Below, one piece after another: positions 18,857 to 36,436 of a stretch of DNA of 64,000 nucleotides (the stretch's first letter is position 1; each line of letters starts with the position of its first letter). This DNA comes from an uncultured Acidobacteriota bacterium (GTDB taxonomy: Bacteria > Acidobacteriota > Vicinamibacteria > Fen-336). Location of the stretch: positions 2,892 through 66,891 of the forward strand of contig CAZVOI010000304.1 of assembly GCA_964628275.1 (NCBI GenBank), given 5' to 3'. The notes under the pieces are model-generated. The model made no database searches, was not told the DNA's origin, and saw nothing but the letters and a program-made list of their open reading frames with translations. Made by a program: the position numbers and the translations under genes.

Positions 18857-19585
18857 ATGAACCCCGACATTGAGAAGCTGATCCGGCTCCAGAAAGCCGA
18901 CAGCGAGCTCAAGCGCGCCGAGACGGCGCTCGCCGACGCTCCCCACCAACGCTCTCTGCTCGACGCACGGCTTCGTGACGAGAAGAGCCGGCTCGAGACC
19001 GCCAAGAGTGGCCTCGCCGATTCGCAAAAAGAACGGCGCCAGCACGAGGGCGCGCTCCAGGATCTCGAAACCAAACGCTCCCGCTACAAGGGCCAGTTGA
19101 TGGAGGTCAAGACCAACAAGGAATACACCGCGATGCTCCATGAGATCGAGACCGTGGAGCGAGAGGTCAAGGCGCGCGAAGACCAGATCCTGGTAGAGAT
19201 GGAGCGCACCGAGACGCTGCAGGCCGAGGTGAAGAGCGAGGAAGCCGCTTTGAAGGCGGTCGAGGAGCAGCACCGCGCCGACGCCAAGGCGCTCGACGAG
19301 AGGGTGCGCTCCCTGGAAGCCGAGGTCCAGCGCTTCCGAGCCGAACGCGACGAGGTCGCGAAGGGCGTCTCCGAAGACACGCTCGCGCTCTACGAGCGGG
19401 TGGCCAAGCTGCGCGGTTCGGGAGTCGCCGAGGTCAAGGACGAGATGTGCCTGGTGTGCCACGTGAAGCTGCGGCCGCAGTTGTACGTGGACCTGAAGAA
19501 AAACGACGCCATCGTCCAGTGCAACGCGTGCAACCGGATCCTGTTCTACGAGCCTCCGGTGCCGGTCGTCGCGCACCAGCCGTGA
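18857..19585 (+). CDS. COG1579/DUF164-type coiled-coil protein with a C-terminal C4 zinc ribbon
   Basis: 242 aa. Long heptad-like coiled coil, then CLVCHVKLRPQ...VQCNACNRILFY. Confidence 0.8.
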   Translation: MNPDIEKLIRLQKADSELKRAETALADAPHQRSLLDARLRDEKSRLETAKSGLADSQKERRQHEGALQDLETKRSRYKGQLMEVKTNKEYTAMLHEIETVEREVKAREDQILVEMERTETLQAEVKSEEAALKAVEEQHRADAKALDERVRSLEAEVQRFRAERDEVAKGVSEDTLALYERVAKLRGSGVAEVKDEMCLVCHVKLRPQLYVDLKKNDAIVQCNACNRILFYEPPVPVVAHQP

Positions 19586-27596: not shown

Positions 27597-28391
27597 CTAC
27601 TTCCAGACGATTTGGTTGCGGTAGGCGTCCAAGTGATTGGACAAGATCTCGGCCTGGACGGACCAGGTCGTCGTGCTCTTGTCCCAGGTGCCGGAGATCT
27701 CGTAGAGCACCTCGTTCTGCCGGGACGCGACCTCGCGGGCCAGCGGCTGGACGGCCTCTCGGGTCTGCTTGCCGTTGAGCTTGGTCGTCAGCACGAGCTC
27801 CTTGATCTCGATCGTCCGTTTGCCCTCGTTGACGAAGGCGACGCGAATCTTGTACGTGTCGCCCGGTCTCACACGCTGCGGCGTCGAGCTGAACTCGATC
27901 CGGCCGTCGATCTCCGGAGCGCGCTTGACATGAACGTCCTTTCCCTTTTTCCCGTCGAATCCCGAGAGTGGCTTCGAGGCGCCGCCCTTCAGGTTCTCGG
28001 ACGAGGTGCGGCTCGCGACGAAGCTGCGCCGGATCATCGCCTGCGACGTGAGCGGGGGCGGCGCTCCCGAGGTCCCGCGCGGGCCACCCAGCGAGGCCTT
28101 GTCAGCCGGCTTGCTGGCCGTGGTTCGCTTGCCGGCCGCGGGTTGTGGAGCCGCCGGCTTCGCGCCGGCTCCCGTGGACCTCACGGGGGAAGGCGCGCCT
28201 TCGGCAGCGGCAGCGCCCGCGCCCGGCGCGGGAGTGGCCTCGGCTGCGCGGCTCGGCGACGGCAGCGAAGCCGGAGGCGGCGCTGAAGCGGGTTGCCGGT
28301 AGACGAGAAAGCCGACACCCAGCGCTAGCGCGACCGCGGCCGCCAACCCCCCGATCAGCGAAGCGTTCGAGCTTTTGGGAGTCCCAGACAA
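27597..28391 (-). CDS. Membrane-anchored hypothetical protein: N-terminal TM helix, Pro/Ala-rich linker, C-terminal beta-rich domain
   Basis: 264 aa, TTG start. TM helix LIGGLAAAVALALGVGFLVY. No motif recognised in the C-terminal 130 aa. Confidence 0.55.
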   Translation of the reverse strand: MSGTPKSSNASLIGGLAAAVALALGVGFLVYRQPASAPPPASLPSPSRAAEATPAPGAGAAAAEGAPSPVRSTGAGAKPAAPQPAAGKRTTASKPADKASLGGPRGTSGAPPPLTSQAMIRRSFVASRTSSENLKGGASKPLSGFDGKKGKDVHVKRAPEIDGRIEFSSTPQRVRPGDTYKIRVAFVNEGKRTIEIKELVLTTKLNGKQTREAVQPLAREVASRQNEVLYEISGTWDKSTTTWSVQAEILSNHLDAYRNQIVWK

Positions 28392-28422: not shown

Positions 28423-30240
28423 TCAAGCCACGGGCACGGGCGGTACGACCTTCAAGTAGCGGGGCGACGTCCCGAGATGCTTCCACTTCTCGGGGAGAGC
28501 GTAGGAGGGATTGGGCGCTTCTTCGCAGACGCCGCAGCGGATGCAACCCTGGATCTCGGGGCAGTGCGGAGAGGCGCGCTCGGCGCGGCTCTTGTCCAGC
28601 TCGCGCAGGTAGTAGGCCTTGCTGACGCCGTTGTCGATGAGATCCCAGGGCAGGACCTCCTCGCGGCCCTTCTCGCGGAAGAGATAGAAGCCCGAGTCGA
28701 GACCGGCCGCCTTCATGCCCCGCTTCAGGTCGACGCCTTCCACCGCGGCAATCTCGAGCGCATCCGCCACGCGCCGGTCGGCCAAGGCCAGGATCGACTG
28801 CGCGACGCCGGAGCGCGCGCTCTTGCAGACGGCGTCCACGTTGGGCAAGCGCCCGAACGCCTTGCGCAGGTACTGGAGCTTCGCGTCGGTGCCCTTCGGG
28901 TCCTCCATCGGCAGCCACTGGTAGGGCGTGCCGGGCTTCGGCACGAACGGGTTGACCGACGGGTGCAGCCGGCCGATACGCCCGCGACCGCGCGCGACCT
29001 TGAGCATTCGCTCGCGAATTGCCGCGGTGAGCGTGACGATCGCCTCGACGTCGGTGTGCTCCTCCCACGGCAAGCCGACCATGTAATAGAGCTTCAGGTT
29101 CTCGATGCCGTTCTCGAAGATCCACTCCGCCTTGTCGAGGATCTCGGCGTTCGTGAACTGCTTGTTCAGGATCTTGCGCATCCGGTCGCTGCCGCACTCG
29201 GGCGCCAGTGTCAGTCCCTGCACGCCAGTGTCGGCCAGCTTGAAGACGAACTCCGGCGTCAGATCGTCGAGCCGCAGCGACGCGACCGAGACCTCGTAGT
29301 CGAGCGCTGCCAGGTCGTCGACGATCTCGTTGATCTCGGGGTGGTCGCAAACGGCGGTCGAGACGAGGCCGATCTTGTTGGTGTGAGCGCGCACCTCGCG
29401 CGCCCGGTCCACGATCTTGGCCCGAGAGAAGCCGCGCACCGGAAGATAGTTGTAGCCGGCCCAGCAAAAGCGGCACATGCACGGGCAGCCGCGCGAGATC
29501 TCGACCATGAACTTCATCGACATCTCGGTGTGCGGCGTCAGGATCGTGGTCTGCGGCAGCCCCATCGTCTCGGGCCAGCCGCGCTGCCGCAGCACGCTGC
29601 CCGGACCGTCGTAGCGATCGACGGTGCCGTCCGCGTGATAACGCACCTCGTAGCGAGATGGCACGTAGAAGCCGTCTTTCTCTTTCAATGTCGCGATCGC
29701 GGCGCGCGCGTCGCTTCCGCCGAGAAGCGCCTCGGTCAGCCGCGGCACCAGCGTCTCGCCTTCGCCCACCGCGATCACGTCGGCGAACGGCGCCAGCGGC
29801 TCGGGGTTCAGGAACATCGCCGCGCCGCCCAGGATCACCAGCGGATCACGCGCGCCTCGGTGCTTGGCGCGGAGCGGCACTCCGGCGAGCTTCAACATCT
29901 GCAAGACATGCAGATAGTCGTTCTCGAACGAGATCGAAAACGCGATCGCGTCGAAGCGGCCCAGGTCGGCGCCGGTATCGAAGCTCAGGAGGCGTGCGCC
30001 GCTCCTCTCGAGGTCGTCCTTGTCGATGTCGTCGGGCAGGAATGCTCGCTCGCAGACGACTCCTGGCTGGTCGTTGAGGAGCGCGTGCACGCCCTGGAAG
30101 CCGAGGTTGGACATCCCGACGAAGTACAGGTTGGGATAACAAAGCGCGATCCGGAAGGCGCCAGTCGTCTTGGGCTCGCGCAGCCAGAGCTCCGCCGGAC
30201 GGAGTCTTTCGTGGCGTTCCTGGAGGAGGCGACGGCTCAT
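28423..30240 (-). CDS. Radical SAM protein of the TIGR03960-like family, with a C-terminal extra Cys cluster
   Basis: 605 aa. Family-typical N-terminus IALCYPNLYFVGMSNLGFQGVHALLN. Radical SAM motif RGCPCMCRFCWAG (CxxxCxxC). C-terminal CPEIQGCIRCGVC. Confidence 0.85.
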   Translation of the reverse strand: MSRRLLQERHERLRPAELWLREPKTTGAFRIALCYPNLYFVGMSNLGFQGVHALLNDQPGVVCERAFLPDDIDKDDLERSGARLLSFDTGADLGRFDAIAFSISFENDYLHVLQMLKLAGVPLRAKHRGARDPLVILGGAAMFLNPEPLAPFADVIAVGEGETLVPRLTEALLGGSDARAAIATLKEKDGFYVPSRYEVRYHADGTVDRYDGPGSVLRQRGWPETMGLPQTTILTPHTEMSMKFMVEISRGCPCMCRFCWAGYNYLPVRGFSRAKIVDRAREVRAHTNKIGLVSTAVCDHPEINEIVDDLAALDYEVSVASLRLDDLTPEFVFKLADTGVQGLTLAPECGSDRMRKILNKQFTNAEILDKAEWIFENGIENLKLYYMVGLPWEEHTDVEAIVTLTAAIRERMLKVARGRGRIGRLHPSVNPFVPKPGTPYQWLPMEDPKGTDAKLQYLRKAFGRLPNVDAVCKSARSGVAQSILALADRRVADALEIAAVEGVDLKRGMKAAGLDSGFYLFREKGREEVLPWDLIDNGVSKAYYLRELDKSRAERASPHCPEIQGCIRCGVCEEAPNPSYALPEKWKHLGTSPRYLKVVPPVPVA

Positions 30241-30289: not shown

Positions 30290-31486
30290 CTACTCGTTCG
30301 TTCCTTGCTTGCGGAGAAACGCCGGCACGTCCAGGTCGAAGCGGCCGCCGGTGCCGGTAGCCGCCTTGGGGTTCGGCGTCTTGCGATAGAAGCCGCCGGC
30401 CTCAGCCGCCGTCAGCTGAGAGGGCGCCGTGACCGCGTTGGGGCCGACGTAGTTGCCGAGATCGACCGGCGTCGACGCGACCTTGCGGCTGCCGCGGGTG
30501 AAGCCGGTCGCGATCACGGTGACCTTGACCGCCTGCCCCATCGAATCGTCGGTGACGATCCCGTAGATCACGTTGGCGTCGGGGTCGGCGGCCTTGGTGA
30601 TGAGAGCGGTGGCTTCGGCGGCTTCGGCCAGCGAGAGATCGGGACCGCCGGTGATGTTCACGATGATGCCGCGCGCGCCTTCGATCGAGCTGTCTTCGAG
30701 CAGCGGGTTGGAGATCGCGCGCTGCGCCGCGTCCACCGCGCGGTTTTCGCCTTCGCCCATACCCGTGCCCATCACCGCCGCGCCCATGCCCTTCATGACC
30801 GCGCGCACGTCCGCGAAGTCGAGGTTGATCTGGCCGGGGATCGTGATGATGTCGCTGATGCCTTGCACGGCTTGCCGCAGCACGTCGTCGGCGACACGAA
30901 ACGCCTCGGACACGGGGGTGTTGCGGGCGACGGTCTGGAGTAGCCGGTCGTTGGGTATCGCGATCACCGAATCGACGCACTCCTTGAGCTGGGCCAGGCC
31001 CTCTAGCGCCTGGCTCATGCGTCTCTTGCCTTCGAGACTGAACGGCAGCGTGACGACAGCGACGGTCAGCACGCTGCCACTATCGCCGCCGAGCTGGCTC
31101 GCGATCGACGCCACGACAGGCGCGGCGCCAGTTCCGGTGCCGCCGCCGAGACCGGCGGTGATGAACACCATGTCGGAGCCCTCGAGCGCATCGCAGATCT
31201 TCTCGGTGTCTTCGACCGCCGCTTGCCGCCCCAAGTCGGGATTGGCGCCGGCCCCGAGGCCCTTGGTGAGCTTGCCGCCGATCTGGATCTTCACGGGCGC
31301 TCGGTTGGCGCGCAACGCCTGCAGATCGGAGTTGACGGCGATGAACTCGACGCCCTGCACGCCGGAGGCGATCATCCGCGAGAGCGCGTTCCCGCCACCG
31401 CCGCCGACACCCACCACTTTGATGTGGGCGCCGCGAGTCTCGTCGTCCGCGAAGGCGATCCGAGGCCCTTGGTTCGATTGGTTCAT
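30290..31486 (-). CDS. ftsZ: Cell division GTPase FtsZ
   Basis: Motifs [30 protein letters not shown]-terminal peptide [18 protein letters not shown]. Confidence 0.97.
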
Positions 31487-31501
31487 TTGGAGGCTCCTAA
31501 A

Positions 31502-31708
31502 CTATATCCCTTCCGAACAGCCGGTCATGAAGCCGCATTTCAGGCAAATGCGCTTGCAGTGGTGGGCGATCACGGCGCTGCCGCACATCTCGCAACGCGG
31601 GTCTCCGGCCTCACGCAGATGGCGCGCCTTTCGCCCCGCGGCCTCGCGAGCCGAGTGACGGATGAACGGCATCTGCGGCAAGGCCGGCCCCTCGTCTTTG
31701 GTCTCCAT
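31502..31708 (-). CDS. Small (68 aa) Cys-rich zinc-ribbon protein encoded between ftsA and ftsZ
   Basis: The ORF fills the 234-nt ftsA-ftsZ gap. SD GAGGGAG lies 6 nt upstream of the ATG. Sequence ...GDPRCEMCGSAVIAHHCKRICLKCGFMTGCSEGI has 6 Cys and 2 His. Third-position G/C bias resembles its neighbours. Confidence 0.6.
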   Translation of the reverse strand: METKDEGPALPQMPFIRHSAREAAGRKARHLREAGDPRCEMCGSAVIAHHCKRICLKCGFMTGCSEGI

Positions 31709-31720
31709 TCAGGCTCCCTC

Positions 31721-32974
31721 TCAGAAGAAGTCCGACAGCAGCGTCTTCAAACGTCCTGCGACACGACCGAAGGTTCCCGTCCCCTGCGCGCGCGCGGCGT
31801 CGCTGCCAGCCCCGAGGCCGAGTCGATTCCGATAGCCGCACAGCACCAGCCCGACGGCCGTCGAGTAGACCGGGCTCGCCACCACGTCCACCAGGCCGCC
31901 GATACCGCTCGGCGTGCCGCGACGCACTTGCATGTCGAAGATCTGTTCGGCTATCTCGGGCAAGCCTTCGAGGATGCCGCCGCCGCCGGTCAGCACGACG
32001 CCGCTGTTGAGGTTTCGATCGAAGCCGGCGCGCCGGATTTCGGTCAGCACGAGCTGGCAGATCTCCTCGGCACGCGCCTGGATCACGTCGCCCAGCACCT
32101 GGCGCGCCATGATGCGCGGCTTCCTCCCGCCGACGCTGGGCACCTCGATCGAGTCCTCTTCGGGAATCATCGAGGTCAGGGCGCAGCCATGCTTCTTCTT
32201 GATCTTCTCGGCTTCGCCCACCGGCGTCCGCAGCGCGACCGCGATATCGTTCGTAAAGTGCTCGCCGCCGACCTGCAGCACAGCGGTGTGCCACAGCGAG
32301 CCCTTCTCGAAGATCGCGAGGTCGGTGGTGCCGCCGCCGATGTCGACGATCGCGACGCCCAGCTCCTTCTCGTCGGGCGTCAGGCACGCCTCCGAGGCCG
32401 CGAGCTGGGTGAGCACGGTGTCGATCACCTCGAGGCCGGCACGATTCACGCAGGTCACCGTGTTCTGGGCCGAGGTCTGCGAGCAGGTCACCACGTGCAC
32501 GTTGACCTCGAGCCGGGTGCCGGTCATGCCAGTGGGATCGCCGATGCCGTCCTGGTCGTCGACCACGAACTCTTGCGGCAACACGTGAAGGATCGAGCGG
32601 TCCATCGGGATCGAGACGGCCTTGGCCGCGTCGATCGAGCGCCGGATGTCATCGCGATCGATCGCGCGGTTCTTGCTCGCGACCGCGACCACGCCGCGCG
32701 AGTTGAAGCTGCGGATGTGCGTGCCCGCGATGCCGACGTAGGCCGAGCCGATCTCGACACCGGCCATCAGCTCGGCCTCCTCGACTACGCGCTTGATCGA
32801 GTCGATCGTCGCCTCGAGGTTGATCACGACGCCCTTGCGCAACCCCTTCGACTCGGTCTGGCCGATGCCGATGATGTCGAGGCGGCCCTCTTCGGTGATC
32901 TCGGCGACGATCGCGCACACCTTCTGCGTGCCGACGTCGAGCCCGACGATGTAGCGGTCTTTCTTCTTGGCCAC
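31721..32974 (-). CDS. ftsA: Cell division protein FtsA (actin-like ATPase)
   Basis: 417 aa. Motifs IVGLDVGTQKVCAIVAE, VDIGGGTTDLAIF, VLTGGGGILEGL. Confidence 0.95.
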   Translation of the reverse strand: MAKKKDRYIVGLDVGTQKVCAIVAEITEEGRLDIIGIGQTESKGLRKGVVINLEATIDSIKRVVEEAELMAGVEIGSAYVGIAGTHIRSFNSRGVVAVASKNRAIDRDDIRRSIDAAKAVSIPMDRSILHVLPQEFVVDDQDGIGDPTGMTGTRLEVNVHVVTCSQTSAQNTVTCVNRAGLEVIDTVLTQLAASEACLTPDEKELGVAIVDIGGGTTDLAIFEKGSLWHTAVLQVGGEHFTNDIAVALRTPVGEAEKIKKKHGCALTSMIPEEDSIEVPSVGGRKPRIMARQVLGDVIQARAEEICQLVLTEIRRAGFDRNLNSGVVLTGGGGILEGLPEIAEQIFDMQVRRGTPSGIGGLVDVVASPVYSTAVGLVLCGYRNRLGLGAGSDAARAQGTGTFGRVAGRLKTLLSDFF

Positions 32975-32992: not shown

Positions 32993-33985
32993 CTATCCAT
33001 GCGTGGTTTCGATCCCGGGCAAGGTTCCTTGCGGCTTCGGCGGCGGCACGAGCTCGGGAGCCTGGGCGGGCGGATCCGGCTTCTTGATCTCGGTCTTCAG
33101 CTCGGCGCTCTTCGGTTCCGGTTTGGCGAGCGGCTCTTTGGCATAGATGCGGTCCCGGAAGCGCAGGTCGAAGTACTCGGCGTTCGGGCAGCGCTCGACC
33201 AGGTCCTGGCGCAGCGCCAGGAACGTGAGGAACTTCTTTCGATACGGCGGCGCGCCGAGCCGCAGCACCTCCCCCGGCCCGCGCATCACGATGCGCAGGT
33301 CGCCCGAGTCCTCGACCTTGACCTCGGAGAGCGCCTGAGCGTAGTCGCCGAGATCCCGCAGCAGCACGCCGGCGCGCTCGGCACGGTCGCGCCGCGCGTC
33401 GCCGTCGTAGCCGGCGAGGCCGCGCACGATCGGCAGATCGAAGCTCGCGGTGCGCGGGCCGAAGACGTCGATCAGCGTGCCGTCGCCGTCCATCAGATAC
33501 AGCCGATCGACCTCGGCGAGCGCCAGCGGCACGCGCTCCTTGATCTCCACGTGCAGCGTGTCGGGCAGGCTGCGCCTCAGCGTGGCGTCGGCCACCCATG
33601 TTGAGCCGCGCAGCCGTCGTTTCAGCTGGTCGAGATCGACGGTCAGGATGTTTTCGCCGAGCGCCGGCCCCATCAGCTGGCGCACCTCGCCTTCGGAAAG
33701 GAAGCGTTGGCCGCGCACCAGCAGCCGGGTGACCTTCAGCTTCTCGCTCGCCATCACGCGCGCGTAGCCGGTCCAAAGGGCGCTCACCAGCAGCGCGCCC
33801 AGCGCGCCCAGCTGCAGCGCCAGCAGGACGCGACCTAGTACGCCGCGGCGGGCTCGCTTGGTGCGGGTCCGGCTCTTGGGCCGAAAGAACGGCGCCTCCT
33901 CTGCGCCCGCCGGTTGCACATCCTCGATCGGACGCGGCGGCAGCGCCAGGCGCAGTTGCGGCTTGCCGGTGCGGGTTTCGGGCAT
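32993..33985 (-). CDS. ftsQ: Cell division protein FtsQ (POTRA domain)
   Basis: Basic N-terminus, TM helix VLLALQLGALGALLVSALW, POTRA stretch KVTRLLVRGQRFLSEGEVRQL. The ATG at 33985 overlaps the murC TGA. The track start at 33988 is a TTG one codon upstream. Confidence 0.85.
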   Translation of the reverse strand: MPETRTGKPQLRLALPPRPIEDVQPAGAEEAPFFRPKSRTRTKRARRGVLGRVLLALQLGALGALLVSALWTGYARVMASEKLKVTRLLVRGQRFLSEGEVRQLMGPALGENILTVDLDQLKRRLRGSTWVADATLRRSLPDTLHVEIKERVPLALAEVDRLYLMDGDGTLIDVFGPRTASFDLPIVRGLAGYDGDARRDRAERAGVLLRDLGDYAQALSEVKVEDSGDLRIVMRGPGEVLRLGAPPYRKKFLTFLALRQDLVERCPNAEYFDLRFRDRIYAKEPLAKPEPKSAELKTEIKKPDPPAQAPELVPPPKPQGTLPGIETTHG

Positions 33986-35364
33986 CAAGCCCTGCCCTCG
34001 AGGCGACCCAGCAACGCTTCGCCGGCCCGATGCACCGGGCCGGCGCCCAGCGTCAACACCACGTCGCCCGCGCGCACGGTCTCGAAGAGCCGCTCTCCGG
34101 CCGCGGACAGGTCGCCAGCGAAGATCACGCTCTTGCCCGAGGCGTCCGCGATCGCGACGGCCAGGCGGCGCGAGTCGACGCCGTCGATTTGAGCTTCGCT
34201 GGCCGCGTAGATGTCGACGAGCAGCAGCACGTCGGCGTCGCCAAAGGCCGTCGCGAACTCGTTCCAGAGCGCCTGGGTACGCGTGAAGCGATGCGGTTGA
34301 AACAGCACTACGGTGCGACGCGCCCCCGCGAACGTCCGAAGCATGCGCAGCGTGGCCTCGATCTCGGTCGGATGATGGCCGTAGTCGTCGATCACGACGA
34401 CGTCTCCCGCCGCGCCGAGCCGCTGAAAGCGCCGGTCGACGGTGCGGAAGGCCGCGAGGCCGGCGCGGATCGATTCTGGAGCGACGCCGAGCTCGACAGC
34501 CACCGCCACCGCCGCGAGCGAGTTGACGACGTTATGCGCTCCAGGCACCTGCAAGGTGACCGGGCCCACCGGGCGACCCTCGACAAACGCCGCGTAGCTC
34601 GCCGAAGTGGCGAGAACCCTCACGTCGCGCGCCTGAACGCGAGCCGCCGGACTCAACCCGTAGCTGATGCTGCGTCCGGCCACTTTGCTGATCAGCGCGC
34701 GCGTCGGAGCGTCGTCGGCGCACAAGATGGCGGCGCCTTCTTTCGGCACGCGGTTGGCAAAGTCCAGAAAGACCTGCTTGATGTCGTCGATGTCTCGATA
34801 CGTGTCGAGGTGCTCGCGGTCGATGTTGGTGACGACCGCGAAAGTCGGCGTGAGTTTCAGGAAGGAACGGTCGGACTCGTCGGCCTCGACGACCACGAAC
34901 TCGCTCCGGCCGAGACGAGCGCCCGAGTTCAGGTTGCCGACACGGCCGCCGACCACCAGCGTCGGATCCAGGCCGCCGCTCTCGAGAACCGAGGCGACCA
35001 TCGCCGTGGTGGTGGTCTTGCCGTGGCTTCCGGAGACGGCGACGCTGCGCTTGCCGCGCATCAACTCGGCGAGCATCTCGGCACGCGGCACTACGGGAAT
35101 CGACAGCCGGCGCGCTTCGAGGGCTTCTGGGTTGTCGGCGGTCAAGGCGCTCGTCGTCACCACGACGTGTGCGCCATGAACGTTGCTGGCCGCGTGGCCG
35201 ACGACGATCGTGGCGCCGAGCGCTTGCAGCCGATCGGTCGTGGCGGAGCACTGCTGGTCGGACCCCGACACCACGTCGCCCCGGCCGATCAGGATCTCGG
35301 CGATTGGGCTCATGCCCGAGCCTCCGATGCCGACGAAGTGGACGTGCCGAGGATCTCTCGCCAC
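33985..35364 (-). CDS. murC: UDP-N-acetylmuramate--L-alanine ligase
   Basis: Motifs HFVGIGGSGMSPIAEIL and GSHGKTTTTAM. The GTG at 35364 lies 1 nt after the murG stop. The track ATG at 35412 would overlap murG by 47 nt. Confidence 0.92.
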   Translation of the reverse strand: MARDPRHVHFVGIGGSGMSPIAEILIGRGDVVSGSDQQCSATTDRLQALGATIVVGHAASNVHGAHVVVTTSALTADNPEALEARRLSIPVVPRAEMLAELMRGKRSVAVSGSHGKTTTTAMVASVLESGGLDPTLVVGGRVGNLNSGARLGRSEFVVVEADESDRSFLKLTPTFAVVTNIDREHLDTYRDIDDIKQVFLDFANRVPKEGAAILCADDAPTRALISKVAGRSISYGLSPAARVQARDVRVLATSASYAAFVEGRPVGPVTLQVPGAHNVVNSLAAVAVAVELGVAPESIRAGLAAFRTVDRRFQRLGAAGDVVVIDDYGHHPTEIEATLRMLRTFAGARRTVVLFQPHRFTRTQALWNEFATAFGDADVLLLVDIYAASEAQIDGVDSRRLAVAIADASGKSVIFAGDLSAAGERLFETVRAGDVVLTLGAGPVHRAGEALLGRLEGRA

Positions 35365-35365
35365 G

Positions 35366-36436
35366 TCACGCGGCCTTTCCTTCCAGGAGATCGGCGACGC
35401 GGGCGGCCGCATCCGGCCGGGCCATCCGCCGGGCCGCCTGTTCCATCGCCACGAGCCGCGCGGGGTCGGCGAGCAGCTCGCGAACCGCGTCGGCGAGCCG
35501 GCGACCGGTGAGGTCCGGCTCTTCGATCATGCGCGCGGCGCCGGCCGTCTGCATCGCGCGGGCGTTCTTACGCTGGTGGTCCTCCGCCGAGCGCCCGAAC
35601 GGAACCAGGATCGCGGCCTTTCCGGCGACCTGCAGCTCCGCGCAGCTGGTTGCGCCGCTGCGGCACACCACCAGATCGGCCGCAGCCAGCCGGGCTTCCA
35701 TGTCGTCCAGGAACGCCACGACTTCGGCGGCGCGGCCAGCCTGGGCATACGCGGCCGCGACGCTCTCGCGCAGGGCCTCGCCGGTCTGGTGGACGACCGT
35801 GAGCATGTCCGCGGTCGGAAGCAAAGGCAGTGCAGCCACGACGGCGTCGTTGAGGATCCGCGAGCCCTGGCTGCCGCCGAACACCAGCAGCGTGAACGGC
35901 GCGCGATGTGGTTTGGCCGGACTCGAGGCGAAGCCGCCGCGAACCGGATTGCCGGTGACGACGCCCTTGGCCGCGAAGTAGGCGCCCGCTTCCTCCCAGG
36001 CGCAGGCCGCCTTGCCGACGAAGGGCTTCAGCACGCGGTTCGTGAAGCCGGGACGGGCGTTCGGCTCGAGGATCACCGTGCGCACTCCGAAAAACGCCGC
36101 CACCAGCACGAGCGGGCCGCCGGCGTAGCCGCCGACGCCGAGAACCGCGTCTGGCCGCGTGCGGCGGACGAGCAGCGCGGCGCGGAGCAGGCCCCACGGC
36201 AAAGCCAGCAAGCCGCGCAGCAACCGAAGCAGCCCGACCTGGTTGAGCGGCAGGATCGGCAGCAGCTCGAGCGCGCGCCCGCCCTTCGGCAGGAGTCGCG
36301 CCTCGAGGCCGCGCGCGGTTCCCACGAAGACGACGCGCGCGGCGGGATCGCGGCGCTCGATCTCTTCGGCGACGGCGATGCCGGGAAACAGATGGCCGCC
36401 GGTGCCGCCCGCAGCGATGAGGATCGTCCGCGCCAT
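35366..36436 (-). CDS. murG: Undecaprenyldiphospho-muramoylpentapeptide beta-N-acetylglucosaminyltransferase
   Basis: Motif AAGGTGGHLFPGIAVAEE. 356 aa. Directly abuts ftsW. Confidence 0.93.
   Translation of the reverse strand: MARTILIAAGGTGGHLFPGIAVAEEIERRDPAARVVFVGTARGLEARLLPKGGRALELLPILPLNQVGLLRLLRGLLALPWGLLRAALLVRRTRPDAVLGVGGYAGGPLVLVAAFFGVRTVILEPNARPGFTNRVLKPFVGKAACAWEEAGAYFAAKGVVTGNPVRGGFASSPAKPHRAPFTLLVFGGSQGSRILNDAVVAALPLLPTADMLTVVHQTGEALRESVAAAYAQAGRAAEVVAFLDDMEARLAAADLVVCRSGATSCAELQVAGKAAILVPFGRSAEDHQRKNARAMQTAGAARMIEEPDLTGRRLADAVRELLADPARLVAMEQAARRMARPDAAARVADLLEGKAA

Follow-up and report, generated by a model that had tools for sequence, protein, structure and literature searches.

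A conserved zinc-ribbon-type microprotein gene between ftsA and ftsZ in Vicinamibacteria, a candidate division factor

The gene string ftsQ-ftsA-ftsZ is among the most conserved in bacteria. In the DNA analyzed here, a stretch of 64,000 nucleotides from an uncultured Acidobacteriota bacterium (the window), these three genes lie on the minus strand, and a small gene, here called X, is inserted between ftsA and ftsZ. The features of the locus are listed below.

32993..33988, minus strand: ftsQ, heading the ftsQ-ftsA-X-ftsZ unit (Pfam POTRA_1)
31721..32974, minus strand: ftsA, directly upstream of X (TGA at 31723..31721; Pfam FtsA and SHS2_FTSA domains)
31714..31720, minus strand: Shine-Dalgarno sequence (SD) GAGGGAG of X, beginning right behind the ftsA stop codon
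31502..31708, minus strand: X, putative zinc-ribbon microprotein gene of 68 codons (ATG at 31708..31706, stop TAG at 31504..31502)
31667..31699, minus strand: N-terminal motif of X, residues 4-14, K-x-E-G-x-A-x-P-x-x-P (family consensus K-x-EG-x-AFPP-x-P)
31595..31666, minus strand: variable linker of X, residues 15-38, helix predicted with low confidence
31505..31594, minus strand: predicted six-Cys zinc-ribbon domain of X, residues 39-68 (C39 C42 / C51 / C55 C58 / C64)
31494..31498, minus strand: SD AGGAG of ftsZ, inside the X-ftsZ spacer
30290..31486, minus strand: ftsZ, directly downstream of X (ATG at 31486; Pfam Tubulin and FtsZ_C domains)
28423..30240, minus strand: radical SAM gene (605 aa), just downstream of ftsZ

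An earlier, sequence-only reading of this DNA had singled out a minus-strand open reading frame that fills the ftsA-ftsZ gap. Its coordinates and geometry proved exact, with spacers of 12 nt to ftsA (GAGGGAGCCTGA) and 15 nt to ftsZ, and its translation was correct, including the positions given for C39, C42, H49, H50, C51, C55, C58, and C64. The claim that X has its own SD was also upheld, both by the GAGGGAG in the window and by an SD-like tetramer that 45 of the 51 orthologous loci have 6 to 16 nt 5' of the X start, most often as ...TTCTTCTGAGGGAGG... The third codon positions are indeed as G/C rich as those of the neighbors, with a GC3 of 0.81 for X against 0.80 to 0.93 for the rest of the mapped genes of the window. 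By itself, a 68-codon frame in DNA of 68.6% GC is unremarkable, since spurious open reading frames of similar size are plentiful in the window. No terminator-like site was found on the minus strand from the 5' end of ftsQ to the end of ftsZ. The short gaps, the SD of each gene, and the lack of a terminator-like site between them argue for co-expression of X with ftsA and ftsZ.

Other possible signals in and around the gap were considered and rejected. For an internal ftsZ promoter, the only hint is one sigma-70-like match in the 3' end of X (31528..31501, minus strand), where 0.3 would be expected by chance; six other loci do not conserve its -10-like hexamer. X and ftsZ share a reading frame in the window, with a start-to-start distance of 222 nt; read-through of the X stop codon into an X-FtsZ fusion was discarded because the frame is not shared in locus L001, where the offset is 217 nt. 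We also dismissed the idea that a known riboswitch or other structured RNA lies in the gap, since the whole window gives no Rfam match and third codon positions vary freely.

Searches for relatives of X returned 131 proteins of 64 to 81 aa at first and about 200 of the same length in all. All 50 genome matches were metagenome-assembled genomes of Vicinamibacteria/Acidobacteriota, and in these 50 species genomes X was single copy with no second location, in a scan that used exact canonical motifs. The order ftsQ-ftsA-X-ftsZ on a single strand was seen in 54 of 54 loci, in each of which the X frame is intact, with no frame-breaking change. X adjoins ftsA and/or ftsZ in all 56 loci examined, two of which carry Cys-degenerate orthologues in the same gene order. 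Codon variability was 0.31 at position 3 and 0.08 and 0.04 at positions 1 and 2, respectively. Over residues 39-67 the dN/dS was 0.085 and 0.019 in the two clades, at synonymous sites near saturation (pS ~0.5-0.63). The C-terminal 29 residues of X are more conserved than FtsA and FtsZ. Indeed, in one clade FtsA and FtsZ are only 68 to 77% identical to those of the window and residues 39-68 of X are still 83 to 87% identical, which argues for a conserved macromolecular partner. The sequence-only reading had named conserved synteny, purifying selection, and conserved cysteine positions as checks, and frame-breaking indels or a missing open reading frame in relatives as what would tell against it. 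The first three were all found, the cysteines as invariant columns of the family alignment, and neither of the latter was. X is a genuine gene, under strong protein-level selection and in fixed synteny.

Within the protein, conservation is unevenly distributed. The N-terminal motif has E6, G7, and P14 conserved at 90% or more and a dN/dS of 0.27 in the main clade; it is kept in the Cys-degenerate orthologues and missing from a divergent clade (loci L045-L054). The linker that follows has a dN/dS of 0.63 in the main clade, its charge is not conserved, and its pLDDT is about 54 to 66 in AlphaFold2 (AF2) models. The isoelectric point of the N-terminal part spans 4.4 to 11.3 across the family, one whole clade being acidic here (pI ~5), and the basic N-terminal half that had been remarked on is peculiar to the window sequence. 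For the C-terminal domain, which contains the motifs H-C-K and G-C-S-E-G, the proposed zinc-ribbon-type cysteine motif found support in two AF2 models, both with a three-strand ribbon topology (strands 45-49, 52-55, and 61-63) and a pLDDT of about 81 to 86 over roughly residues 41-60; overall the models were moderate, with a pLDDT of 68. Foldseek comparison of the two models with PDB and BFVD gave nothing at an E value of 0.001 or below, the best values of 0.4 and 0.07 being to generic zinc ribbons only. A PDB sequence search with two family profiles yielded no solved relative, only ribosomal zinc ribbons with E values of at least 0.007.

The cysteines of this domain fall into two sets. C39, C42, C55, and C58 are never missing from family members that show the canonical spacing of the ribbon. 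The other two, C51 and C64, usually stay or go as a pair: among 211 family members, chosen by the N-terminal motif plus the canonical four-Cys ribbon spacing, both were kept in 195, both were lost in 11, and one was lost in 5. Locus L064 has lost C51 and C64, yet its FtsA is as close to that of the window as in canonical members. The pair is thus dispensable in some lineages, and a redox pair cannot be the universal function of X. The pattern first proposed had also included two histidines, and only its cysteines withstood comparison, through the AF2 ribbon and the conserved columns. H49 is not conserved, and the residue before C51 is H in 350 of about 400 members of X and its related family together, with Q, K, R, or N in the rest; H50 is therefore unlikely to be a metal ligand. 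The residue after C51 is K in 368 of the same set.

When X was scanned directly against Pfam and NCBIfam, every match was sub-threshold (PHF5, DUF3090, L32, S27ae, HVO_2523, and the NrdJ C terminus). A profile search of 1.84 billion representatives returned matches at E values of 3e-10 to 1e-3 to proteins of the PF28087 type, small proteins that end in C-x2-CG-x7-HCK-x2-C-x2-CG[YF]-x-RDCSDP with a Cys spacing identical to that of X. When the alignment of the X family (A1) was compared with one of PF28087-type proteins (A2) by hhalign, the probability was 99.3% and the E value 1.4e-20, a figure that is not independent, as A2 was built from matches of the A1 profile. The independent NF041914 model matched 45 of 46 A1 members and 36 of 39 A2 members. 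The best E value among the 46 X-family members was 3.4e-4, and X of the window scored 16.9 bits, under the curated cut-off of 60 bits. A precomputed PF28087 match exists for a single listed X-family member, the canonical P0439. By these profile comparisons, the C-terminal domain of X is assigned to the HVO_2523 six-cysteine zinc-finger superfamily (Pfam PF28087, NCBIfam NF041914). The suggestion of an undescribed factor holds, to our knowledge, for a gene between ftsA and ftsZ, but not for the domain, which was already catalogued.

The shared features are many. Both have the spacing C-x2-C-x8-C-x3-C-x2-C-x5-C, and the six cysteines are the sole invariant columns in the PF28087-type alignment; of 416 small proteins whose ribbon spacing is canonical, 398 have all six. 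X carries the family motifs as CG (42-43), HCK (50-52), CGF (58-60), and CSE (64-66), where the family has CG[FY] and CS[DE], and in both cases the domain sits at the extreme C terminus with a tail of 3 to 4 residues, in small free-standing proteins of about 40 to 110 aa. X differs in its signature, CEMCG...HCKRICL.CGFMTGCSEGI against ...RDCSDP in other members, in its lineage-specific N-terminal motif, and in its location, as X alone sits inside ftsQAZ. Relatives in Gemmatimonadota, NC10, other bacteria, and haloviruses occupy unrelated, non-division contexts, which implies that the fold is not intrinsically a division module. The haloviral relatives lie between genes for DNA polymerase B and thymidylate synthase, another relative overlaps a DNA polymerase A gene at its end, and one adjoins an FMN reductase gene with ThyX about 1.6 kb away. 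The best explanation of these similarities is that X branched off the HVO_2523-type (PF28087) zinc-ribbon family as a form specific to Vicinamibacteria and became fixed in the ftsA-ftsZ gap. The family is named after HVO_2523 of Haloferax volcanii, for which the reported phenotypes are pleiotropic deletion effects only, on motility, biofilm formation, and growth on glycerol, with no division defect reported (PMC6562870, PMC12949519).

A second likeness, to the tail of the class II ribonucleotide reductase NrdJ (the terminal portion of its cysteine-rich domain, or NrdJb), is offered as a lead on how X may work, with no claim of membership. In NrdJd of S. nassauensis, Cys 920, 923, 936, and 939 are proposed zinc ligands, and 933 and 945 a proposed redox pair (Loderer et al. 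2017, PMC5704485). Set against residues 39/42/51/55/58/64 of X, the NrdJ cysteines 920/923/933/936/939/945 are in exact register for five of six, the third being shifted by one residue. In both proteins the six cysteines are at the very C terminus, and the layout of four zinc ligands plus a two-Cys pair that was proposed for NrdJ would, by analogy, apply to X. The NrdJ finger is preceded by a hydrophobic, cysteine-rich domain of 150 to 220 aa, whereas X has a variable N-terminal part of 38 residues in its place, and X, unlike the NrdJ tail, is neither fused to nor beside a ribonucleotide reductase gene, its neighbors being ftsA and ftsZ in all loci. Positions ~918-960 of the 960 in the NrdJ model NF005122 were matched weakly by 34 of 46 A1 members and 15 of 39 A2 members (E values of 0.001 to 0.1), and the best E value for the similarity, 0.004, is statistically weak. 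The full-library profile search included no protein of NrdJ length among 135 matches at an E value of 1e-3 or below. A tblastn search of phages and plasmids with the family consensus returned haloviral and haloarchaeal HVO_2523-type genes only, and no NrdJ, so that the link stays at the level of a shared pattern.

From gene position alone, X is a credible candidate division factor. Small modulators of FtsZ and FtsA act on the Z-ring, and the genes of some lie within dcw clusters or close to them. We know of none that is a six-cysteine zinc ribbon or that is located between ftsA and ftsZ. The statement that X is unlike the known modulators was borne out by the Pfam and NCBIfam scans, in which models for ZapA-D, SepF, MciZ, SulA, and FzlA did not match X at E values up to 1 (Pfam) or 10 (NCBIfam). 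A functional precedent is available from archaea, where the CdpC protein of Haloferax contacts FtsZ1 directly through a C-terminal C4 zinc ribbon, in a manner that depends on the Cys residues of that ribbon (bioRxiv 10.64898/2026.07.16.738847). The ribbon comprises about 40 residues and shows that such a domain can serve as an FtsZ-binding module; by analogy, the ribbon of X might do the same. CdpC of H. volcanii, likened to X here by description, is a 346-aa protein that combines two ribbons with a membrane-binding helix and a long linker, and X differs from it in having no membrane-targeting element.

The mechanism that follows is inferred throughout, from co-transcription and zinc binding to the thiol pair, the partner, and whatever effect X may have on division. 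X would be made off the ftsQAZ transcript along with FtsA and FtsZ. C39, C42, C55, and C58 would hold one structural zinc in a three-stranded ribbon, and C51 and C64, on neighboring strands, would make up another functional unit, most probably a pair of thiols that are reactive or redox active, as suggested by the near-congruent six-Cys module at the class II ribonucleotide reductase C terminus. The near-invariant ribbon surface, which takes in E40, M41, K52, R53, F60, M61, and T62, would bind a conserved partner, for which FtsZ or FtsA is the most plausible candidate, with the N-terminal motif as an accessory contact, and this binding would modulate Z-ring assembly. Our tentative preference, held at somewhat under even chances, is for a lineage-specific microprotein that is expressed together with FtsA and FtsZ and binds one of the two. 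A stronger version is unlikely: X would be a new kind of bacterial Z-ring regulator, in which the C51/C64 pair, built like the electron-shuttling NrdJ tail, ties FtsZ or FtsA binding to redox state or dNTP supply. If true, it would couple cytokinesis to metabolism, and the widespread HVO_2523/PF28087 family would gain its first molecular function.

The most serious competitor, which we regard as possible though rather doubtful, is that X is a general-purpose HVO_2523-type microprotein with a job apart from the divisome (it might shuttle thiols or electrons in the metabolism of nucleotides or DNA) that landed once in the ftsA-ftsZ gap and was kept there for growth-coupled expression. The spread of PF28087 relatives over non-division contexts, several of them beside replication or nucleotide-metabolism genes (DNA polymerase B or A, thymidylate synthase, ThyX), fits this well, as does the resemblance of the six-Cys layout to the NrdJ electron-shuttle tail. 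However, a passenger would have to have held its position in 56 of 56 loci as FtsA diverged to 68% identity, to occur nowhere else in 50 genomes, and to lie in tight 12- and 15-nt gaps with an SD for each gene; moreover, the frame persists in place after loss of C51 and C64, which is hard to square with a pure redox-shuttle job. Alternatively, the ribbon could bind DNA or the ftsZ mRNA leader and tune the ftsA:ftsZ expression ratio, without contact with the two proteins themselves. X lies directly upstream of ftsZ, suited to autoregulation, its own linker in the window is Arg rich, and its neighbors in fold and sequence are nucleic-acid-associated zinc ribbons (TFS4, Rpb9/RPA12, eL37, L32, and Csl4). 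Those matches are not significant, though (E values of 0.007 to >1), the basic character is not conserved, given the clade with an acidic N-terminal part, the X-ftsZ gap varies in length and sequence among loci, and no Rfam RNA element was found in the window, all of which leaves this an improbable account.

Two further readings have far less in their favor. A radical SAM gene lies behind ftsZ in the window, as it does in most loci with enough flank. In SCIFF/ranthipeptide systems, six-cysteine precursors occur with a radical SAM enzyme, and X might by analogy be such a RiPP precursor, with the product of this gene as its enzyme. We rejected this as very improbable, as the radical SAM protein is TIGR03960-like (uncharacterized, B12-binding, and under the family cut-off) and only loosely linked to X. 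Its sole match to a RiPP enzyme is to ApyD at 32 bits against a cut-off of 750; ftsZ separates it from X, several loci also have opposite-strand genes or 1 to 3 kb of DNA between X and the radical SAM gene, and in some loci none was found in the flank. The Cys spacing of X is also that of the zinc ribbon common to PF28087 proteins, which are without radical SAM neighbors in the contexts examined. The view that X is a chance frame of the kind that GC-rich DNA produces, or else that it is paralogous to L32 or S27ae, had its own grounds: spurious frames abound in the window, JGI names a few X-family members "ribosomal protein L32" or "S27AE," and the L32 model TIGR01031 gives a weak match (16.4 bits, E value of 0.008). 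That score is under the cut-off of 22.6, only 4 of 46 members match, and the alignment is limited to the generic CxxC...CxxC ribbon. With a dN/dS of 0.02 to 0.09 over the ribbon and the frame intact in all loci, the selection and conservation data effectively refute this reading from sequence comparison, and we give it almost no weight; the sequence-only view of X as a real coding gene was right.

We know of no earlier description of a gene kept in the ftsA-ftsZ gap across a bacterial class and outdoing both neighbors in conservation. A literature search found no paper linking Vicinamibacteria to ftsZ, and one for zinc ribbons, FtsZ, small proteins, and the divisome found only the archaeal CdpC preprint. 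If X binds FtsZ or FtsA, the divisome of this abundant, little-studied soil lineage would gain a microprotein regulator, and a testable function would be suggested for PF28087, whose members occur in haloarchaea and their viruses as well as in several bacterial phyla. If X is instead a hitch-hiker, it would still be a clean case of microproteins being overlooked or misnamed, as the L32 and S27AE labels illustrate.

The sequence-only reading had described a 68-codon gene, X, in the gap between ftsA and ftsZ, and on re-reading both its geometry and its translation, with the cysteine and histidine positions, proved correct:

31721 to 32974, minus strand: ftsA (Pfam FtsA and SHS2_FTSA), ending in TGA
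31502 to 31708, minus strand: X, seen as an ORF in the sequence; ATG at 31708, 68 codons, stop codon TAG at 31504 to 31502
start at 31486, minus strand: ftsZ (Pfam Tubulin and FtsZ_C)

The spacer from the ftsA stop to the X start is 12 bases (GAGGGAGCCTGA), and that from the X stop to the ftsZ start is 15 bases, with AGGAG within it. The entire dcw cluster lies on the minus strand, with ftsQ and murC upstream of ftsA. No terminator-like sites were found on that strand from the 5' end of ftsQ to the end of ftsZ, and no Rfam families anywhere in the 64-kb window. A sigma-70-like match (31501 to 31528, minus strand; ATGACC, 16 nt, TATAGT) falls within the final codons of X, immediately before ftsZ. 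It is the sole such candidate in 8 kb, where 0.3 would be expected by chance, and the X 3' ends read at six other loci do not preserve its -10-like hexamer. X and ftsZ also share a reading frame (31486 to 31708, minus strand), with one TAG and five codons between them; a read-through fusion is unlikely, because L001, one of the loci compared, has the two genes in different frames.

ORFs of this size are frequent in the window's 68.6% GC DNA, so the ORF by itself proves nothing. Among 5.8 billion proteins, a word-indexed search returned 131 relatives (64 to 81 amino acids, 51 to 96% identity), and a second search with divergent members as queries returned 194; the window's exact protein already has an entry, unnamed and derived from an NCBI contig, in a public protein collection. 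With each GTDB species represented by a single genome, a scan found X in 50 genomes, all Vicinamibacteria or Acidobacteriota MAGs, with one copy in each. By tblastn, the order ftsQ, ftsA, X, ftsZ on one strand was found in 54 of 54 loci, and the frame breaks feared in relatives did not appear in any of them; six loci missed by a strict motif regular expression carried single substitutions only, with frames intact. Of 51 distinct loci, 45 carry an SD-like tetramer 6 to 16 nt 5' of the X start, mostly abutting the ftsA stop codon. Departure from consensus in the C-terminal domain was 0.31 at codon position 3, against 0.08 and 0.04 at positions 1 and 2, and dN/dS pointed to purifying selection on the protein at residues 39 to 67.

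dN/dS of X by region (Nei-Gojobori, JC-corrected)
Residues 39-67, main clade (40 sequences): 0.085
Residues 39-67, divergent clade (8 sequences): 0.019
Residues 2-16, N-terminal motif, main clade: 0.27
Residues 17-38, linker, main clade: 0.63

X is a real gene, well supported as such, and we leave very little room for its being a non-gene or L32. Some members bear the JGI names "ribosomal protein L32" or "S27AE," neither of which is backed by the scores. Two proteins in the representative library are gene-calling artifacts, P0131 (380 amino acids) joining a frameshifted FtsA fragment to X and P0141 (96 amino acids) the end of X to the start of FtsZ; here the small gene was swallowed by its neighbors in fragmentary assemblies.

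The cysteine columns lie in a nearly frozen C-terminal domain, which in the alignment reads C39 E40 (M41) C42 G43 ... (H50) C51 K52 R53 I54 C55 L56 x C58 G59 F60 (M61) T62 G63 C64 S65 E66 G67; H49 is not conserved. In the lineage of loci L045 to L054, residues 39 to 68 are 83 to 87% identical to the window's and FtsA and FtsZ 68 to 77%, so the domain is more conserved than both flanking division proteins. Upstream of it, the main clade shows moderate constraint on an N-terminal motif, K-x-EG-x-AFPP-x-P, followed by a linker almost free to vary. The divergent clade (L045 to L054) has an acidic N terminus in place of the motif, and family members span pI 4.4 to 11.3 over their N-terminal part, so the basic N-terminal half noted earlier is not a family property. 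AlphaFold2 was run on alignments of 46 and of 63 sequences, and both models gave the same three strands (45-49, 52-55 and 61-63), with pLDDT of ~81 to 86 over about residues 41 to 60 and low elsewhere. The predicted topology is that of a zinc ribbon, as the first reading had proposed.

Weaker profile-search matches among 1.84 billion representatives were small proteins of about 40 to 110 amino acids from many phyla, ending in C-x2-CG-x7-HCK-x2-C-x2-CG[YF]-x-RDCSDP. These carry Pfam PF28087 ("HVO_2523") and match NCBIfam NF041914 ("HVO_2523 family zinc finger protein"). Their six-cysteine spacing is exactly that of X, the two alignments matched with an hhalign probability of 99.3%, NF041914 was matched by 45 of 46 members of the X family, every one under the 60-bit cutoff, and a PF28087 hit is on record for P0439, a canonical member. 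On these sequence comparisons, X is a divergent subfamily of the catalogued HVO_2523 family and not an HVO_2523 equivalog. The catalogues give this fold family a name but not a function. Deletion of HVO_2523 in Haloferax led to poorer growth on glycerol and poorer swarming, more biofilm, and altered motility and cell-shape proteins (PMC6562870, PMC12949519).

The second most consistent subthreshold match was to the last ~40 positions of NF005122, a class II ribonucleotide reductase model (34 of 46 X-family members and 15 of 39 members of the PF28087-type alignment). In S. nassauensis NrdJd, six cysteines of this tail (920, 923, 933, 936, 939 and 945) are essential; four were proposed as zinc ligands, and 933 plus 945 as a pair shuttling electrons to the active site (Loderer et al., PMC5704485). 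Five of the six are in register with X residues 39, 42, 51, 55, 58 and 64. However, the similarity is weak (best E, 0.004), a full-library profile search with the X family gave no NrdJ at E of ≤1e-3, and X, unlike NrdJ, lacks the remainder of the cysteine-rich domain. We therefore treat this as likeness rather than membership; by analogy, X may work like the NrdJ tail.

Profile search of the representatives also recovered faster-evolving orthologs that keep the N-terminal motif. Among 211 members chosen for the motif and canonical ribbon spacing, in which C39, C42, C55 and C58 are present by selection, C51 and C64 were both present in 195, both lost in 11, and lost singly in 4 (C51) and 1 (C64), counts that are not phylogenetically independent. 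We infer a Zn(Cys)4 site formed by C39, C42, C55 and C58, and a separate, paired feature of C51 and C64, which would lie face to face on the two strands that bracket the second knuckle of the three-stranded ribbon. Both cysteine-degenerate genes placed on DNA adjoin ftsA and/or ftsZ; in one, locus L064, FtsA is 86% identical to the window's and X just 37%. At L064, murB also separates ftsQ from the upstream gene (687 to 2530), whereas the window runs from murC straight to ftsQ (32993 to 35412). Since some lineages keep X in place after losing C51 and C64, the ribbon core, accompanied by the N-terminal motif in most lineages, would carry the basic function, and the thiol pair would be an added layer.

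Judged from gene position only, a divisome-associated role is a tentative reading to which we give slightly less than an even chance. X holds a fixed position with tight spacing and is better conserved than FtsA and FtsZ, which suggests a strongly conserved protein partner; FtsZ or FtsA would be the obvious candidates. An FtsZ-binding ribbon is mechanistically plausible, because the C-terminal C4 zinc ribbon of Haloferax CdpC binds FtsZ1 directly and in a cysteine-dependent manner (bioRxiv 10.64898/2026.07.16.738847). It is rather unlikely, though a serious competitor, that X hitchhikes in the cluster and does other work, perhaps as a thiol shuttle in nucleotide metabolism. The genomic contexts of its PF28087 relatives favor this: no division-cluster context was found in those examined outside Vicinamibacteria, and neighbors included VTT-domain, FMN-reductase, PrpD and hexapeptide-transferase genes. 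An HVO_2523-type gene is flanked by DNA polymerase B and thymidylate synthase in haloarchaeal tailed viruses. Such genes recurrently adjoin replication or nucleotide-metabolism genes:

L062, 4001 to 4090: Halorubrum tailed virus 25, gp42
L063, 4001 to 4090: HSTV-2
L066, 502 to 720: overlaps the end of a DNA polymerase A gene
L057, 5001 to 5126, on a 4.4-Mb bacterial contig: directly upstream of FMN reductase, with ThyX ~1.6 kb away

The ORF is unannotated in HSTV-2 and several other haloviruses. That X is a nucleic-acid-binding regulator of ftsZ expression seems improbable, and a RiPP precursor deserves very little weight.

The proposal of an undescribed division factor held in part: the domain belongs to the catalogued PF28087/NF041914 family, but the dcw-embedded Vicinamibacteria subfamily, with its N-terminal motif and 4+2 cysteine logic, is new to our knowledge. 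Our literature search found no paper joining Vicinamibacteria, cell division and ftsZ, and for a zinc ribbon, FtsZ, a small protein and the divisome only the archaeal CdpC preprint; papers found for "between ftsA and ftsZ," PMC12016547 among them, report no gene there in title or abstract. X is a good experimental candidate.

Downstream of ftsZ, after 49 nt and on the same strand, starts a gene for a 605-amino-acid TIGR03960-like B12-binding radical SAM protein (28423 to 30240, minus strand; below the family cutoff), which most related loci also carry 3' of ftsZ, with varying spacing. It is followed, in the window (27597 to 28391, minus strand) and in L001 (9481 to 10272), by an ORF of 263 to 264 amino acids without a Pfam match, which may be a conserved hypothetical gene of this neighborhood. 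A second zinc-ribbon protein, unrelated in sequence to X, is encoded ~12 kb from the division genes (18857 to 19585, plus strand; 242 amino acids); its domains are a CT398-like coiled-coil hairpin and a zinc ribbon of the C4 type (Zn_ribbon_9).
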